Part shown: piece by piece, positions 3,758-49,123 of the stretch | Position numbering within the stretch: the stretch's first letter is position 1 | Layout: each line of letters begins with the position of its first letter | From: a bacterium | Lineage (GTDB): Bacteria; Patescibacteriota; Saccharimonadia; UBA4664; JBBRNT01 | Assembly (NCBI GenBank): GCA_043767845.1 | Contig: JAYUFZ010000010.1 | Coordinates: 7,182-71,181 of the forward strand | Reading direction: 5' to 3' | Length of the DNA stretch: 64,000 nt | Position numbers and translations under genes: made by a program | Notes under the pieces: generated by a model | What the model was told of the DNA's origin: nothing | The model's database searches: none | The model's input: the letters and a program-made list of their open reading frames with translations, nothing else

Positions 3758-4411
3758 ATGGATAAGATTGTACTCGAATTACATAAACGGACCGAAAAGG
3801 GCAAGGCTAATGCCAAGCTGCGCGCCGAAGGTATGACCCCTGGCGTTGTTTATGGCCACGGCGCCGAGCCAGAGTCAGTAAAGGTTCCAACCAAGGAGCT
3901 TACGAAGGTCTTTAACCAAGCTGGTTGGAGCAAGATTATAGGACTAAAGATCGATGGTACTCGCCAGACCAATGCCCTCATCCAAGATGTTCAGCACAAC
4001 CCGTTGACTGGTGGTATTAACCATGCGGATTTCTACCTGGTACGTATGGACGAAAAGCTTGAGACCGAGGTTCCATTGCACTTTATTGGCGAGTCCACAG
4101 CCGTCTACCAGATGGAAGGCACATTGGTTAAGACTATGGAGACGCTTGAGGTTCGCGCCTTACCCGGCGACCTGCCCGAGAGCATTGAAGTTGATATCTC
4201 AGTTCTCGATGATTTTGAGAAGACTATCCATGTTAGTGACTTGAAGGTTCCGAAGGGTGTCGAAGTATTGGCTGACCCCGAAGAGCTAGTTGTGAAGGTT
4301 GACGCGCCGCGCAGTGATGAAGAGATGGCCGCCCTGGATACCGAAGTAGTTGAAGAACTACCAGAAGGTGTTGCTGATGAACCAGTAGCCGAAGAGGAAG
4401 CTGGCAAGTAA
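3758..4411 (+). CDS. rplY: 50S ribosomal protein L25 (general stress protein Ctc form, with acidic C-terminal extension)
   Basis: N-terminus MDKIVLELHKRTEKGKANAKLRAEGMTPGVVYGHG and L25 beta-barrel signature; 217 aa Ctc-type length. Confidence 0.85.
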   Translation: MDKIVLELHKRTEKGKANAKLRAEGMTPGVVYGHGAEPESVKVPTKELTKVFNQAGWSKIIGLKIDGTRQTNALIQDVQHNPLTGGINHADFYLVRMDEKLETEVPLHFIGESTAVYQMEGTLVKTMETLEVRALPGDLPESIEVDISVLDDFEKTIHVSDLKVPKGVEVLADPEELVVKVDAPRSDEEMAALDTEVVEELPEGVADEPVAEEEAGK

Positions 4412-6600: not shown

Positions 6601-7845
6601 CTACCCTAGTAATTCCTTAGCCACCTTCGGCGCATTCCCGAAACCAATTCGATCAGTTACCCGCTTGGCTGTTAGGTGGCGGGCAGGGACTATGGTATGA
6701 CGGCCATAGCGTTGCTCAATCTCATCGAGCGCTCGGCTGAGGTTATTGTTTCGCTGAGTCTCAAAAAGACTCAGCGGTTGGGCGGCTGACGGTATAAGGT
6801 CGAAAGTGATCACCGATATGAGTCGGACGGCCTTATGGAGCGGAGCGTCGCTTAGTAGCTCAGTAACTTTTTCGAACAACCCGATTGAGTCAGTAAAAAG
6901 GGCAGTCTTGCGACGAGCCTTGGACCAATAGCTGCGGTCGGAGTAGCGCAGACCAACTGCCACGCTCGAGGCCGAGAAGCCGCCCACCCGCAAGCGGGTA
7001 GCGACCTTATAGCTCAGCTGGCTAGCAATGCTCAAAATCTGTTCCTTGGAGCGGCTAGCCGGTCCGCCGAGAGTTGTCTGATGGCCAATCATACTGCGCT
7101 TTGTCGGTTTTTGGTCTACTTCATAGCCGCGCAGCCGCAAGTACCAAGCCTGTCCAGGCATGCCAAAGGCTTTGGTGAGCAGGGCATAGGGCGCATGGTA
7201 AAAATCAATCGGTCGGTAGATACCTAGGTCACCCAGCCGTCTTGCCATCCGCCAAGAAATGCCTTGCAAGTCGGTCAACTGTAAACTGCTGTAGAATTCG
7301 ATTAGTTCATCCGGTTCTGGGCGGATACTTGAAAGGCCATTAACCTTGCGCACCCGCGTACCCATTTTAGCTAGAAACATATTACTAGAAATACCAACTG
7401 AACAGTTTAGCCAGTCACCGACATCCCAGATGAGTGCCTTGATATCATGACCAACCGCCTCGGCCTTCAGCCACAGGTCCCGGGGTGCAAGCAGGAATGC
7501 TTCATCGATGCTTTTTATACTGACTTGGCAGCGGGTTTGGTCGAGTGCTTCCATTACTCGCCGATGGTAATCGCGATACAGCCCGACGTTATCGCTGACA
7601 AGAATTATTTCCGGGCATAATCGCCGGGCTTCAGGAATTGGCGTGCCAGTTTTTATGCCCAGGCGCTTAGCTTCGACTGAAGCCGCGATAATACAAGTAC
7701 TGTCATGGACAAAAGGGCAAACACCCACGGGTTTTCCACGCCACTCCGGCCGGACCTGTTGTTCGACAGACGCAAAGAAAGAATTCATATCGACAAACAG
7801 GGCCTGGCCAAAGTTTGGCTGGTGGCTGAGCATCTGCTCTAGCAT
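6601..7845 (-). CDS. dinB: Y-family DNA polymerase (DNA polymerase IV / DinB-type)
   Basis: ALFVDMNSFFASVEQ (catalytic Asp region) and SIKSIDEAFL (catalytic D-E motif); little-finger domain follows. Confidence 0.85.
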   Translation of the reverse strand: MLEQMLSHQPNFGQALFVDMNSFFASVEQQVRPEWRGKPVGVCPFVHDSTCIIAASVEAKRLGIKTGTPIPEARRLCPEIILVSDNVGLYRDYHRRVMEALDQTRCQVSIKSIDEAFLLAPRDLWLKAEAVGHDIKALIWDVGDWLNCSVGISSNMFLAKMGTRVRKVNGLSSIRPEPDELIEFYSSLQLTDLQGISWRMARRLGDLGIYRPIDFYHAPYALLTKAFGMPGQAWYLRLRGYEVDQKPTKRSMIGHQTTLGGPASRSKEQILSIASQLSYKVATRLRVGGFSASSVAVGLRYSDRSYWSKARRKTALFTDSIGLFEKVTELLSDAPLHKAVRLISVITFDLIPSAAQPLSLFETQRNNNLSRALDEIEQRYGRHTIVPARHLTAKRVTDRIGFGNAPKVAKELLG

Positions 7846-23451: not shown

Positions 23452-23467
23452 AACGACGTGAAGCGTA

Positions 23468-23500
23468 TTAAAAAACTCCCCGATAGGGGAGTTTTTTAAT
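23468..23500. terminator. Bidirectional intrinsic terminator
   Basis: aaaaaactcccc-gata-ggggagtttttt. Confidence 0.8.
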
Positions 23501-23510
23501 ACGGGCCAAG

Positions 23511-25107: not shown

Positions 25108-25740
25108 ATGATTCTATCTTTTGTGTATTTAATAGTGGCCTACATCATGGCCATCACTTTCCATGAGTTTATGCATGCCTACACGAGTGATAGGCTTGGG
25201 GATGGGACGGCCAGGAGCCAGGGGCGGATCAGCCTGAATCCTTTTGCCCACGTCGACCCCTTCATGACACTGCTTTTGCCTGCATTACTCATCATCGCGC
25301 ACTCACCGGTCATCTTCGGCGCGGCCCGTCCAGTGCCGTTTAATCCTTGGGCGGTGAAGGGTGGCAAGCGGGGAGTGGCGCTCATTGCTGCTGCCGGCCC
25401 GCTTACTAATCTATTTGTGGCCGCCTTTTTCGCCCTCTGGCTGCGCTTCGCACCAGTTTCTGCCAATCTGGTAGAATTTTTCGTCAAAATAATCCAGGTA
25501 AACGTCGGTTTCTTCGTTTTTAACCTGATTCCATTTCCACCCCTGGACGGCTCAAGGTTACTCTACGTAGTGGCACCAATTGGGGTTCGAGATGTCATGG
25601 ATCGCATCGAGCGAGCCGGCATGATGGCACTCTTGCTCTTCATGTTCATTGGCGGCCCCTTACTTAGCCCGATCATCGGCCAGCTAGTTGGCTCGGTGCT
25701 CAGGTTCTTGATACCCGGGCTCACCAGCCTGAGTGGCTAG
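25108..25740 (+). CDS. Site-2 protease family (peptidase M50) membrane zinc metalloprotease
   Basis: HEFMHAY (HExxH in a TM helix) and NLIPFPPLDGSRLL (LDG motif). Confidence 0.75.
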   Translation: MILSFVYLIVAYIMAITFHEFMHAYTSDRLGDGTARSQGRISLNPFAHVDPFMTLLLPALLIIAHSPVIFGAARPVPFNPWAVKGGKRGVALIAAAGPLTNLFVAAFFALWLRFAPVSANLVEFFVKIIQVNVGFFVFNLIPFPPLDGSRLLYVVAPIGVRDVMDRIERAGMMALLLFMFIGGPLLSPIIGQLVGSVLRFLIPGLTSLSG

Positions 25741-25906
25741 AAACTGGCCCTGTCTTGAAGTATAATGAGCCTACTCTGCATCGTTCGTGTAAGGCTGCCA
25801 ATTTTTCTCTGTTATATTCTTATCGGGAGTTCTAGATTGTCTGGCACCTTGGTGCTCAGATTGCGGACACCCACCTGTCATCTTGGCAGGGAAAGAATGG
25901 GTGGCT

Positions 25907-26581
25907 ATGACGGCGATGCGGAGCTGCAATTATTTTGGAGTCGGTATGTATATTATGGGTTTATCGAAGGGGCTCGGCGCAGTCAAACTGGCCATCGATG
26001 AAGGTATACTGCCAAACCGACGATTAGCTTTCGTGCCAACCGCTGCCCATACAGCAAAGAACCCGTATTGGGTGGAAGAATCCCGGGTGCAGCTGACCAC
26101 GCTTGGGCTAGATCTTTTTGAATTAGATATACATCAGCTCACGAGAGAGGAGTCGCTTCAAATACTTGATGATGTTGACGGCATATACTTCGCAGGTGGT
26201 AACACTTTCTTTTTACTGCAGGAACTGCTTGCTAAGGATCTTGTTGCTGATCTAGTAGGCCGCGTTCGTTCAGGATTCCCATATTTCGGTGAGTCAGCCG
26301 GCGCCGTGCTACTGTGTGAGTCTATAGAGCCAGCGATTCCTCTCGATGATCCTAGCGATGCGCCTAAACTTACCCAATACGCCGGGCTGGGGTTAACTGA
26401 TTTCTTCATACTGCCGCATGTTGACCGGGAAAAGTATCGTGATTTAATGGCTCAGTTCGTAGTAGATAATCAAGCTAGCCTCCAGATAGTTCAGATAGGC
26501 GATGCTCAGGCTGTTATCACTCGCGATGGCAGTAGCTACGAGATTGTGGATTCCATCCTTGTCGAATCGGCTAGCAAATAG
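25907..26581 (+). CDS. Peptidase E-like (S51 family, type 1 glutamine-amidotransferase fold); start uncertain (TTG 25883 / ATG 25907 / ATG 25944)
   Basis: GIYFAGGNTFFLLQELL matches the S51 GGNT motif; a Ser/His are present in the conserved GESAG...H context. Confidence 0.65.
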   Translation: MTAMRSCNYFGVGMYIMGLSKGLGAVKLAIDEGILPNRRLAFVPTAAHTAKNPYWVEESRVQLTTLGLDLFELDIHQLTREESLQILDDVDGIYFAGGNTFFLLQELLAKDLVADLVGRVRSGFPYFGESAGAVLLCESIEPAIPLDDPSDAPKLTQYAGLGLTDFFILPHVDREKYRDLMAQFVVDNQASLQIVQIGDAQAVITRDGSSYEIVDSILVESASK

Positions 26582-26640
26582 GCCGTATAGATTATACGGT
26601 GTAGTTTCAGAGTAATTCGAGTATAATCTACTGGTGGTAT

Positions 26641-26716
26641 CGGGGTGTAGCGCAGTTGGTAGCGCGTACGGCTGGGGGTCGTGAGGTCGCAGGTTCGAAC
26701 CCTGTCACCCCGACCA
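26641..26716 (+). tRNA. tRNA-Pro (anticodon GGG), CCA encoded, C1-G72
   Basis: CGGGGTGTAGCGCAGTTGGTAGCGCGTACGGCTGGGGGTCGTGAGGTCGCAGGTTCGAACCCTGTCACCCCGACCA; anticodon loop CTGGGGG. Confidence 0.85.
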
Positions 26717-26758
26717 CACATAAATAGTAAAAGTATTTACTATTTATGTGTGGTCGGG
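26709..26758 (+). repeat. Perfect 23-bp hairpin that includes the last 8 nt of tRNA-Pro(GGG); followed by a GGAA-tetraloop hairpin and a degenerate second copy (26805-26850)
   Basis: cccgaccacacataaatagtaaa-agta-tttactatttatgtgtggtcggg; then ggctcGGAAgagcc; copy 2 gtatttactacttacatgtggtcggatctcGGAAgagat + agtgaactat. Confidence 0.7.
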
Positions 26759-27080
26759 CTCGGAAGAGCCGGTATCTGATTATTCGACCTTCTAGGCGGT
26801 GGACGTATTTACTACTTACATGTGGTCGGATCTCGGAAGAGATAGTGAACTATATGGTTTGCTCAACTGGTCAGTATCGCCAGGCTTACATACTCTGACA
26901 TCTGAGCATTAAAACAAACAAATACATTTGAAATCTGCTAATTGATCGTATGTAAGCCGAGCCAATCCAAGGAGGCACCACCTAAAGGGGCCGACTGAAT
27001 GGCGAGGCTAGAGGAATAACCACATATAAGCTGGAATCCCCGCACTGGCGGGGAAGCAAGCTGAAATGTGGTTATGACGA

Positions 27081-27156
27081 CGGGGTGTAGCGCAGCTGGT
27101 AGCGCGCGTCGTTCGGGACGACGAGGTCGTGGGTTCAAGTCCCGCCACCCCGACCA
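27081..27156 (+). tRNA. tRNA-Pro (anticodon CGG), CCA encoded
   Basis: CGGGGTGTAGCGCAGCTGGTAGCGCGCGTCGTTCGGGACGACGAGGTCGTGGGTTCAAGTCCCGCCACCCCGACCA; anticodon loop TTCGGGA. Confidence 0.85.
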
Positions 27157-27215
27157 CGGAAAAGGGCTCGTAGAAACGAGTCCTTTTCCGTGGTCGATGC
27201 CGGAAGGCATGGTGA
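27152..27215 (+). repeat. 15-bp-plus perfect hairpin overlapping the tRNA-Pro(CGG) 3' end, then atgccGGAAggcat hairpin and a GGTGAACTAT motif (same module as after the first tRNA-Pro)
   Basis: cgaccacggaaaagg...ccttttccgtggtcg; atgccggaaggcat; ggtgaactattac. Confidence 0.65.
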
Positions 27216-27364
27216 ACTATTACTAGCCCAAAGAGGACTGATCCTTTTGGCCAACAAAGCGTAGTGTAACCATAGATTCTTGTGATCACAAGGGCAGTGT
27301 AAACCCGTGATATCTCGAAATCGGCCTAAACTGCTATAATAAACCCAAACTAACCGAGAACTCC

Positions 27365-27904
27365 ATGGTCACCATCATCTTCGAAGCTCACGGCACCACC
27401 TACGACAACGAAGCCCACCTCTCATCGGGATGGAATGACGTTGAGCTGTCGCCACTTGGTATGAAGCAGTCTGGCGAAATGGGTGATAGATATAAAGATA
27501 CAAATTTTGATGTAATATTCACATCGGATTTACAACGCGCTAACCTGTCGGCTAAGATTGGGTTTGTCTATCGCGATTTTCCAATTATTGCCGATGAACG
27601 CTTACGAGAGTGCCATTACGGAGAATTAACCCAGCATCCAAGTAAGGAAGTCGACAGTGAAAAGCCAAAACGCATCACAGAGCCATTCCCCGGTGGTGAA
27701 AGTTATGAGCAAACTGGCGAGCGGATGAAAAGCTTCTTGTCTGACCTTTTGCGGGACTATGATGGCACGAAGGCCATGATCATCGGTCACCGTGCAACCC
27801 AGTACGGGCTTGATCACTGGATTAAAGGCCTTAGTTATGAAGAGATCATTGCTGCTAAATGGTCTTGGCAGCCTGGCTGGACTTATGAGTTGGGGAAGTT
27901 GTGA
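27365..27904 (+). CDS. Histidine phosphatase superfamily (phosphoglycerate-mutase-like) protein
   Basis: IIFEAHGTTYDNE...SPLG.KQ resembles the RHG motif region (Ala in place of Arg) and a downstream His motif (IIGHRAT). Confidence 0.55.
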   Translation: MVTIIFEAHGTTYDNEAHLSSGWNDVELSPLGMKQSGEMGDRYKDTNFDVIFTSDLQRANLSAKIGFVYRDFPIIADERLRECHYGELTQHPSKEVDSEKPKRITEPFPGGESYEQTGERMKSFLSDLLRDYDGTKAMIIGHRATQYGLDHWIKGLSYEEIIAAKWSWQPGWTYELGKL

Positions 27905-41576: not shown

Positions 41577-42126
41577 GCTTCCTCTATTATGGCTAGTAGT
41601 GGAGGAAAAGTTCTCAGTTCATTGCAACACCAAATCTTAGGCGCTCGCCTAAGGCGTACGGGGCAGATCGTCCCGTCCGTGTCCCTCAGAAGGGAGCAAG
41701 ATGAATGTCTAAGCGCATTCTCCAGTCGCTCACTTCTGTCTACCTCACGCCGCCAACGTGACCTGACAAGAGGTGAGCGCTGTCACTGTTTGGCTTTTCG
41801 CTCTTAACCGACAGCGCGGAGCGACTAGCCGAAAGAGGGGCAAGAAGCGGACAGGATAGGCCTATCCACCCAATTCAAGCCTCTCACCCCCCTTGAGACC
41901 CCACCTCCCAGCGAATTGGGGACTCAAGAAGCCGCGTTGGGGTGGACCCGCCGAAGTATGGCGGGTTCATCCCAGCAAAGCAGCATCGTCGGCCTTCGGG
42001 CCATATCCTGCAGTCTCACTGCAACCCCGAAACACAGTTCAACCGCAACACATGCGACCCAGTTACCTAGCTACGGCTACGCGACTGGGTCGTAAGCATT
42101 TTATGGCCCCAAGTAGGGCTTTTTTT
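41577..42126 (+). ncRNA. Candidate about 545-nt structured non-coding RNA of unknown class
   Basis: No credible ORF; many GC-rich hairpins with UUCG/GNRA-like loops (ggccTTCGggcc, cccgccGAAGTATggcggg, ggataggcctatcc, cgcctaaggcg); bounded by the promoter above and a T7 run at 42119-42126. Confidence 0.45.
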
Positions 42127-48459: not shown

Positions 48460-48848
48460 GGGGCTGACATAGCTTTGACGTGGGTACCTTTACAACCTAA
48501 CTGGCAAGTCGTAGGCATGCGTTAAATCCAACTTTTTCAAATGACAATTCATTTGTATCGCGCGTGAAGTCGCTGTTCGCAGTTCCTTCATTCGCACCAG
48601 CTCTAGCCTAATCGCTTAAGCCATCGGCCTCCTGACGTCAAATGGGGAATCGGCCGGTGTTATATCATTTGACTGCTGTACAACTGAGATAGGCGTTGTA
48701 TTTAAGACTACAATCTGCTCTGTCCGCACATTTCGTTTGCTTCGAGTGCGGGTAGCTAAGAGGGCTCGTCCCACATAAGTAAACTACGCTTGTAGAAGGT
48801 TAGGGAGTAAACTCGCGGACTCGGGTGCGATTCCCGACAGCTCCACCA
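48460..48848 (+). ncRNA. ssrA: tmRNA (transfer-messenger RNA)
   Basis: 5' GGGGCUGACAUAGCUUUGACGUGGG (acceptor/D-like, compare E. coli GGGGCUGAUUCUGGAUUCGACGGG); 3' CGGACUCGGGUGCGAUUCCCGACAGCUCCACCA (T-arm + acceptor + CCA); internal tag frame ...GCA GUU CCU UCA UUC GCA CCA GCU CUA GCC UAA (48579-48611). Confidence 0.9.
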
Positions 48849-48850
48849 CA

Positions 48851-48877
48851 AATGACCCACTTCGGTGGGTCATTTGT
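48851..48877 (+). terminator. Intrinsic terminator after ssrA
   Basis: atgacccac-ttcg-gtgggtcattt. Confidence 0.75.
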
Positions 48878-49123
48878 GTTATTAAGATGATTCATACCGG
48901 GCTTCTCCTGTGGATTTGCACGGCTTAAAGGATTGCCAGTCGCCAACCTGGTAAGGTTGCGCGCTTGTAGGGTACAGGTTAGAATTTGGGGTTGTGTATC
49001 TTTACGAGGTAATCGACGAACGACTGATATTACAATCTATAATAGCAAATCTCCACCATAATTACAAGTCTTGTCAAGCTTTTGATTGGGCGATATGCTT
49101 AGCTTCTACGTAAAGGAGCCTCT

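Follow-up and report, generated by a model that had tools for sequence, protein, structure and literature searches.

Long hairpins at the 3' ends of two neighbouring tRNA-Pro genes: candidate RNA processing elements in a Saccharimonadales-like bacterium

Organization of the locus

The stretch of DNA analysed here, referred to as the window, covers 64,000 nucleotides (64 kb) of a bacterial contig. Its host is Saccharimonadales-like (CPR); homologues of a neighbouring M50-type protease carry the name Candidatus Saccharimonadales. At the locus under study, two tRNA-Pro genes with encoded CCA ends lie on the same strand, tRNA-Pro(GGG) and tRNA-Pro(CGG), hereafter tRNA1 and tRNA2, each identified by ARAGORN and Rfam (Table 1). 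A preliminary description of the locus had placed them about 365 bp apart, in agreement with the gap of 364 nt found here (440 nt from start to start). The two genes have a 26-nt 5' half in common and, in direct orientation, an identical 12-nt 3' end. Overall they are 75% identical and each is closer to its own isoacceptor elsewhere; they are therefore not recent duplicates.

A likely promoter of the tRNA unit is the TATAAT hexamer that can be read upstream of tRNA1. It was missed, owing to a poor -35 element, by a two-hexamer promoter scan, which is a crude tool. The same crude scan revealed no sigma-70-like promoter for tRNA2, whose leader consists of hairpin C, with its 3' edge 5 nt upstream of the gene. 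This leader had earlier been described as a 10-bp inverted repeat plus a separate ccccgc...gcgggg hairpin; the pairing is real, and the two belong to one composite hairpin rather than to separate elements. The spacer between the two units is mildly structured and includes an 11-bp stem (26883-26893 / 26948-26958). It contains no ORF with a usable start, and an Rfam scan assigned it to no family. The idea of a pseudo-tRNA remnant in the spacer was dropped, as its similarity to tRNAs is not significant against shuffled sequences.

Downstream of the second unit, an extended -10 promoter-like site precedes genes for a His_Phos protein, a GNAT acetyltransferase and RNase HI. An RVT_3 match to the last of these had raised the idea of a retron; the gene is an ordinary RNase HI that is kept in all relatives.

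Table 1. Features of the tRNA-Pro locus, in window coordinates.
Feature	Position	Strand	Remarks
TATAAT, -10-like hexamer	26622-26627	+	13 nt upstream of tRNA-Pro(GGG); read directly from the sequence
tRNA-Pro(GGG) (tRNA1)	26641-26716	+	CCA encoded; ARAGORN and Rfam RF00005, 60.7 bits
Hairpin A	26709-26758	+	Arms 26709-26731 / 26736-26758; 23 bp, 100% complementary; loop AGUA
Small hairpin 1	26757-26770	+	GGCUC-GGAA-GAGCC (GNRA-type loop), then GTATCTGAT, a degenerate 9-mer
Half copy A'	26805-26853	+	Copy of the hairpin A 3' arm, small hairpin and GTGAACTAT (26845-26853)
Small hairpin 2	26830-26843	+	AUCUC-GGAA-GAGAU; part of half copy A'
Spacer between the two units	26854-27015	+	Mildly structured, z = -1.96
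Hairpin C, composite leader hairpin	27016-27075	+	28-nt arms, 82% complementary; base AUAACCACAU/AUGUGGUUAU
tRNA-Pro(CGG) (tRNA2)	27081-27156	+	CCA encoded; ARAGORN and Rfam
Hairpin B	27151-27196	+	Arms 27151-27171 / 27176-27196; 21 bp, one G.U; loop AGAA
Small hairpin 3	27197-27210	+	AUGCC-GGAA-GGCAU, then G, then GTGAACTAT (27212-27220)
Further hairpin	27226-27252	+	9-10 bp, one G.U; no T-run
TGCTATAAT, extended -10 promoter-like site	27332-27340	+	For His_Phos-GNAT-RNase HI; read directly from the sequence
His_Phos	27365-27904	+	Pfam
GNAT acetyltransferase	27901-28443	+	Pfam
RNase HI	28440-28856		Conserved backbone

Two long hairpins include the tRNA 3' ends

Each of the two tRNA genes runs directly into a long hairpin. 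As the preliminary description had it, the last 8 nt of tRNA1 (C69-A76) open the 5' arm of a perfect 23-bp stem, hairpin A. A hairpin had also been noted at the end of tRNA2, with its stem understated as 15 bp or more: hairpin B, whose 5' arm begins with the last 6 nt of the tRNA (C71-A76), pairs over 21 bp with a single G.U (G27166-U27181; G:T at the DNA level). An exhaustive scan ranks these as the two longest hairpins in the 64-kb window. Their folding z-scores are -6.4 (A) and -9.6 (B), and both are stable stem-loops containing G+C, at -37 and -40 kcal/mol, respectively; the upper half of hairpin A is rich in A/U, almost purely so. Their geometry is the same: the 5' arm continues for exactly 15 nt beyond A76, and the 4-nt loop is in both cases of the AGNN type.

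Neither of them is a classical terminator, just as the earlier reading of the sequence had stated. No T-run follows hairpin A or B, the next bases being CTCGGAAGAG and ATGCCGGAAG, respectively, and a terminator scan of the plus strand between 26300 and 27500 returned none. Canonical U-tract terminators are present in the same window, after tRNA-Val, after tmRNA, at 23464-23503 and 35713-35746, so the organism does use them. Among the Rfam covariance models only tRNA passes, leaving the trailer hairpins without a family. MicroRNA matches that surfaced at a relaxed threshold (26-29 bits against gathering scores of 58-100) are a reflection of hairpin shape, that is, noise.

A small hairpin and a 9-mer behind the long stems

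The long hairpins are each followed by a small one with a 5-bp stem and a GGAA loop, an arrangement that had been recognized before. Across the three copies at the locus, compensatory changes are found at four of the five stem positions. The 9-mer that had been reported behind both long hairpins is there in exact form only at hairpin B; the unit of hairpin A ends in GTATCTGAT, not in GTGAACTAT. An extra copy of the unit at the first locus had been described too, and it does exist as half copy A', which is where the exact 9-mer of this locus sits. The arm copy within A' (26805-26829) is 88% identical to the 3' arm of hairpin A and 86% complementary to its 5' arm. The remainder (26829-26853) is 80% identical to 27196-27220, with two compensatory pair changes. 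Exact copies of GTGAACTAT occur just twice in 64 kb (26845-26853 and 27212-27220), and variants with one mismatch are at chance level (16 found versus 11.6 expected in 64 kb). A role of GTGAACTAT as a -10 box was considered and rejected: on inspection it matches TATAAT poorly, and the real promoters of this region come close to the consensus. An independent Logan assembly, from SRR23617225, matches 27100-30904 at 100% identity; this segment spans hairpin B and the small-hairpin module, which are therefore not peculiar to one assembly.

Despite the 75% identity of the tRNAs, the two trailers have the hairpin foot, the small hairpin and the 9-mer in common. The simplest origin of this shared module would be a local duplication, or a gene conversion, via the 12 nt that are identical at both tRNA ends, with compensatory drift thereafter; the chimeric half copy A' fits such an origin. 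One could go further and regard all of these hairpins as copies of a small palindromic repeat (REP-, MITE- or PATE-like), or as the result of local duplication or gene conversion at ACCAC, with no role for the tRNA at all. A stretch of 500 nt does contain four hairpins with an ACCAC...GUGGU foot (A, B, C and, in the form of a half copy, A'), A' joins the arm of A to the small hairpin and 9-mer of B in a way that looks like duplication or conversion, and the absence of the module from relatives makes it evolutionarily young. We nevertheless regard this alternative as distinctly improbable. In their inner stems, A and B agree at 4 of 14 positions; these stems are unrelated in sequence, unlike copies of one element, and homology between hairpins C and A was rejected, their similarity being not significant against shuffles. 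The 9-mer, the GTGGTCG...GGAAG unit and the ACCAC...GTGGT hairpins are confined to 26.7-27.2 kb within the 64-kb window; a generic repeat family, which the preliminary description had named as speaking against its reading, is not seen within these 64 kb. TRF finds no tandem array, target-site duplications are lacking, the flanks are inverted and not direct, and no transposase or RAYT-like gene lies nearby. The wobble pairs on the sense strand in B and in a relative, described below, argue for selection at the RNA level instead. Known REP/BIME palindromes resemble the locus in being imperfectly conserved palindromic units clustered in an intergenic region, with a possible effect on RNA stability. 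Unlike them, the units here have no dispersed copies in 64 kb, no relation between their stem sequences, no conserved flanking tetranucleotide and no RAYT gene.

Relatives and the variable slot behind tRNA-Pro(GGG)

A metagenome scan with the 26-nt 5' half common to both tRNAs gave at least 120 tRNA-Pro loci, mostly from gut. Among the matches listed, tRNA-Pro(GGG) genes with 93-96% identity to tRNA1 are present at seven loci, several of which share synteny with the window; five further relatives were obtained via the M50 protein. Their backbone reads MurT-GatD … L28 – M50 – conserved structured element – tRNA-Pro(GGG) – variable genes – RNase HI – RNase P RNA – sugar transferase, the variable genes being small and one or two in number. 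Relative to this backbone, three blocks are additional in the window: an S51 peptidase gene (25946-26581), tRNA-Pro(CGG) with His_Phos and GNAT (26717-28443), and a five-gene operon on the minus strand (28867-32483). The tandem tRNA-Pro(CGG), the GGAA hairpin and the 9-mer are absent from all syntenic relatives examined. The locus thus carries lineage-specific insertions, and the slot behind tRNA-Pro(GGG), judged from these gene orders, is clearly a hotspot of gene content in the clade. The downstream genes had been said to look accessory, and synteny had been proposed as a check on whether 27.3-32.5 kb is an insertion. In part this is supported: relatives lack tRNA2 with His_Phos and GNAT, and the operon at 28.9-32.5 kb, at this position. 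RNase HI is not accessory and belongs to the conserved backbone.

Other routes to relatives were less productive. Scanning genome contigs for the S51 peptidase uncovered no relatives, and around homologues of the S51 peptidase and of His_Phos the neighbourhoods are not conserved and have no tRNA nearby. A genome-contig scan with the pattern CCCCGACCAC-N(20-44)-GTGGTCG proved too loose: it gave at least 120 loci, and those among the matches listed are all chance hits in high-GC coding DNA, none of them at a tRNA.

Variable cargo immediately 3' of a tRNA gene is also what the att sites of tRNA-targeting elements look like, and the preliminary description had considered scars of repeated site-specific integration. 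In such a scenario, attL-type remnants of integrative elements would sit in the tRNA-Pro 3' ends, and these elements would have brought in the downstream accessory genes. In every relative, a different set of genes lies between tRNA-Pro(GGG) and RNase HI, the 12-nt 3' end is identical and directly oriented in both tRNAs, and His_Phos, at 70-75% identity to proteins named from other CPR classes, looks horizontally acquired. The sequence repeated from the tRNA end, however, is inverted and forms a hairpin arm, not the direct repeat that an integrase crossover leaves. The exact CACCCCGACCAC occurs in the window only at the two tRNA ends, its 2-mismatch matches being scattered and mostly on the minus strand. 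Pfam searches of 18 neighbouring ORFs detected no integrase, excisionase or recombinase, nor was a transposase or any match to a mobile element found at the locus. Scans of IMG/VR for the module and for a tRNA end plus hairpin gave zero or two chance matches in coding DNA, and BLAST against phages and plasmids matched the tRNA body only. The same kind of hairpin also stands before different cargo in a relative (L255, below). We consider integration scars very improbable.

Trailer hairpins in relatives point to constraint at the RNA level

An orthologous hairpin is present in the relative L255, whose tRNA-Pro(GGG) is 100% identical to tRNA1 within flanks unrelated in sequence. Its trailer, ACCA-GGAGUGAGUGCUGGA-UAAU-UCCAGCGUUCGCUUC-UGGU, folds into a hairpin of 19 bp that is anchored on A73, has 15 nt between A76 and the 4-nt loop, and includes four G.U pairs; no T-run follows it. 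The hairpin takes up all of the 53 nt that separate the CCA from the next gene's start codon, with the ribosome-binding region and ATG directly behind, which fits a tRNA-mRNA co-transcript. Among the other Saccharimonadales-like tRNA-Pro(GGG) loci, three (L254, L151, L256) have shorter or imperfect pairing with the tRNA end. Six of the eleven loci (L253, L257, L130, L181, L211, L216) have no such hairpin, which is therefore not essential for tRNA-Pro maturation in the clade.

Four trailer hairpins, namely A, B and those of L255 and L226, were aligned. They superimpose without gaps in a single register, consisting of A73-CCA plus 15 nt, a 4-nt loop, and 15 nt plus UGGU. In this alignment 97.4% of the cells are paired and both sides have changed in 13 of the 19 pairs, a high degree of pairing that is partly ascertainment, as the four were chosen as hairpins, so that only the shared register and the strand bias of the wobbles count as independent evidence. 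Sliding the partner by 1-3 columns lowers the pairing to 41-47%. All seven wobble pairs (one in B, four in L255, two in L226) read as G.U when the tRNA-sense strand is folded; the opposite strand, or a DNA cruciform, would have A.C mismatches in their place. In addition, folding of 26700-27260 favours the sense over the antisense strand by 15 kcal/mol. Together, the sense-strand wobbles, the compensatory changes and the difference between sense and antisense folding point to selection on an RNA structure on the tRNA strand, not on a DNA palindrome or a protein-binding site. Of the roles that had been suggested at the outset, one in RNA processing or regulation is the best supported, by the sense-strand G.U pairs and the compensatory changes in one register.

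How unusual are such elements? For comparison, pairing between trailer and CCA (at least three of A73-A76, in a helix of at least 8 bp) was found in 12 of 86 unrelated tRNA-Pro loci among the matches listed. These twelve are ordinary terminators, in which the U-tract pairs back onto the CCA and an A-rich linker, with arms of 14-20 nt and loops of 3-5 nt. A trailer hairpin that overlaps the CCA is thus no rarity. The elements described here stand out by the lack of a U-tract, by how long and how perfect their stems are, by the reach of these stems into the acceptor stem and by the constant geometry.

These controls lend some weight to the view that the hairpins are non-canonical terminators or strong pause hairpins without a U-tract, being lengthened descendants of tRNA terminators that have lost the T-run. 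Control tRNA-Pro genes usually have a terminator directly behind them, the tmRNA terminator in the window also begins at the CA of its CCA, and the hairpin of L226, which shares the register, is itself a canonical A-tract/U-tract terminator whose outer pairs include the CCA; the elements may thus derive from terminators. As an account of what they are now, this is unlikely. A, B and the L255 hairpin are without a T-run, the genome of the window has U-tract terminators elsewhere, the almost pure A/U of the upper half of A is unlike a terminator stem, and tRNA2 and the gene behind the L255 hairpin follow directly, with no recognisable promoter of their own.

Effect on the tRNA fold

The preliminary description had expected the hairpins to compete with acceptor-stem folding, which overstates the matter. 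An overlap exists and is limited to 1-3 acceptor pairs. Minimum-energy structures computed with the trailer retain a cloverleaf in which six of seven acceptor pairs form, and the hairpin starts at G72. If all seven acceptor pairs are enforced, the energy rises by 1.2 kcal/mol in tRNA1 and by 0.3 kcal/mol in tRNA2, so that by these predictions any competition would be marginal. In the predicted precursors, cloverleaf and trailer helix coexist and abut, hairpin A stacking on an acceptor stem of 6-7 bp. What the hairpin really does in these models is to bury A73-CCA in a helix that stacks on the acceptor stem.

A processing or insulating function

Can a function be proposed for these elements? 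With moderate confidence, we interpret the long hairpins as processing or insulating RNA elements in a read-through tRNA operon. This reading is based on the lack of a U-tract, the lack of a recognisable promoter for tRNA2, the L255 hairpin that abuts the next gene and the conservation at the RNA level. Co-transcription, the enzyme and the cleavage position are what we infer from these observations. tRNA1 and tRNA2 would probably be transcribed together from the promoter around 26622, and transcription may continue towards the genes downstream. Within the primary transcript, the hairpins would each stack on the acceptor stem, so that the discriminator base, the CCA and 1-3 acceptor pairs become part of a continuous helix of 19-23 bp. 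Instead of ending transcription, the hairpins may mark and insulate the junction between tRNA and trailer.

An endonuclease specific for double strands or for junctions would then cut in or at the stem. On the transcribed strand, the near-perfect double-stranded RNA amounts to about 20 bp or more (23 bp in A, 21 bp in B, 19 bp in L255), and for a near-perfect duplex of about two helical turns RNase III would be the most natural candidate. A cut about 11 bp from the loop would leave some 4 nt after the CCA, which exonucleases could trim back, and the leftover hairpin might serve as a cap for the neighbouring RNA. The same processing module may include the small GGAA-loop hairpin together with the single-stranded GUGAACUAU.

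A more specific version is conceivable, which we put forward as a speculation with little probability. In one subgroup of the Saccharimonadales, the trailer hairpin would serve as a molecular ruler by which the 3' end of tRNA-Pro matures in a single step: an endonuclease would read the stacked helix or the tetraloop and cut 15 bp from the loop, exactly after A76, replacing the RNase E route of E. coli, with the GGAA hairpin and GUGAACUAU as a docking or second-cut site. Such a ruler is compatible with the combination of 15 nt and a 4-nt loop in all four long hairpins and with the AGNN loops of the two in the window. The distance of 15 nt between CCA and loop loses force as evidence, since ordinary control terminators give 14-20 nt.

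Little is known about tRNA maturation in the reduced genomes of CPR bacteria and Saccharibacteria. If the hairpins are processing signals, they offer a concrete, testable substrate for finding the enzyme that makes tRNA-Pro 3' ends there, and they would also show how tRNAs and neighbouring genes are expressed from one transcript. For annotation, the locus teaches that neither termination nor past integration should be assumed automatically when a long hairpin follows a tRNA.

Relation to known tRNA trailer elements

Most likely, the hairpins are a lineage-specific variant of tRNA trailer hairpins, a known theme and not a new kind of element. In E. coli, the terminator hairpins that abut the CCA of proK, proL and proM are removed by one RNase E cut right after the CCA, which takes off the whole terminator and depends on the C1 nucleotide (PMC5291269; PMC8860583). 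As in that system, the tRNAs here are proline tRNAs with C1-G72 and a stable hairpin directly behind an encoded CCA, and the trailer would have to be removed by an endonuclease and not by exonuclease nibbling. The E. coli hairpins are Rho-independent terminators of 6-12 bp with U-tracts, and the short single-stranded AU-rich linker serves as the RNase E cut site. In contrast, the stems described here have 19-23 bp, neither U-tract nor linker, and include A73-CCA and up to three acceptor pairs.

RNase III processing stems, as in rRNA operons and in phage T7 early mRNA, are near-perfect duplexes of about two turns near a stable RNA within a longer transcript, free in sequence and constrained in length. 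The hairpins of the window would resemble them in these respects. They differ in that rRNA stems pair distant 5' and 3' flanks and the hairpins are local. A further likeness is to the 3'ETS of leuZ in E. coli, a functional RNA cut from a tRNA trailer: there, as here, a tRNA external transcribed spacer holds a conserved structure.

Blocks inserted into a conserved backbone

A comparison of synteny showed that three blocks of the window are missing at the corresponding positions of syntenic relatives, while the conserved backbone includes RNase HI and the RNase P RNA. An independent assembly, a Logan contig from SRR23617225, corresponds to window positions 27100-30904 and ends at 27100 inside tRNA-Pro(CGG), just past a 26-nt segment common to both tRNA-Pro genes. 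This break is probably a repeat-induced contig end.

The His_Phos protein (27365-27904) shares 70-75% identity with proteins assigned by name to Paceibacterota, Minisyncoccia or Parcubacteria, which exceeds the 68% identity between the backbone M50 protein and its closest Saccharimonadales relatives. Because of this difference in protein identity, horizontal transfer of the His_Phos gene among CPR lineages is suggested. In L247, a locus with homologues of both the His_Phos and the S51 genes, the two are separated by 1 kb. Just 5' of the promoter-like site TGCTATAAT of the His_Phos gene lies a direct repeat (AAGCGTAGTGTAA / AAGGGCAGTGTAA), a possible operator.

Features of the window and of relatives carrying the tRNA-Pro(GGG) locus (L handles; own coordinates)
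Feature	Position	Strand	Remark
S51 peptidase block	25946-26581		absent here in syntenic relatives
tRNA-Pro(CGG), His_Phos and GNAT block	26717-28443		absent here in syntenic relatives
Five-gene operon including ABC ATPase	28867-32483	-	absent here in syntenic relatives
Near-consensus promoter TAGAAA-17-TATAAT	25738-25766		upstream of structured element
Structured element, window	25800-25925	+	upstream of inserted S51 gene
Structured element, L253	6671-6811
Structured element, L257	3672-3812
Structured element, L255	1669-1809
Structured element, L254	1706-1846
Structured element, L256	3659-3799
Structured element, L226	1361-1500
Structured element, L130	1775-1913	-
Structured element, L216	793-931	-
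Direct repeat	27257-27269 / 27290-27302		33 nt apart
18-bp hairpin with G.U pairs, without T-run	41936-41976		fourth longest in window
tmRNA terminator stem	48847-48878		14 bp, UUCG loop, then UUAUU

A structured element upstream of tRNA-Pro(GGG)

The window and eight relatives share a conserved structured element, roughly 130 nt long, in the interval from the M50 protease gene to tRNA-Pro(GGG). Within it, GGGAG and CCCACCTG do not vary among the copies. Of the 14 pairs that RNAalifold predicts, 7 show compensatory changes. A search of Rfam with the element returned no family match, and we regard it as a candidate for a small RNA or leader in Saccharimonadales that is not yet annotated.

Hairpins at CCA ends

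In the relative L253, an extended -10 box for the downstream gene (TGTATAAT, 6920-6935) directly follows the CCA of tRNA-Pro(GGG), with no hairpin. In L256, the tRNA-Pro(GGG) trailer (3910-3960) contains GGGGGGGGUG, complementary to the acceptor 3' strand CACCCC, as part of an irregular structure in which the CCA is paired too. Within the window, the tmRNA terminator is a milder form of the overlap between CCA end and hairpin found at the tRNA-Pro genes: its stem begins at the CA of the tmRNA CCA end.
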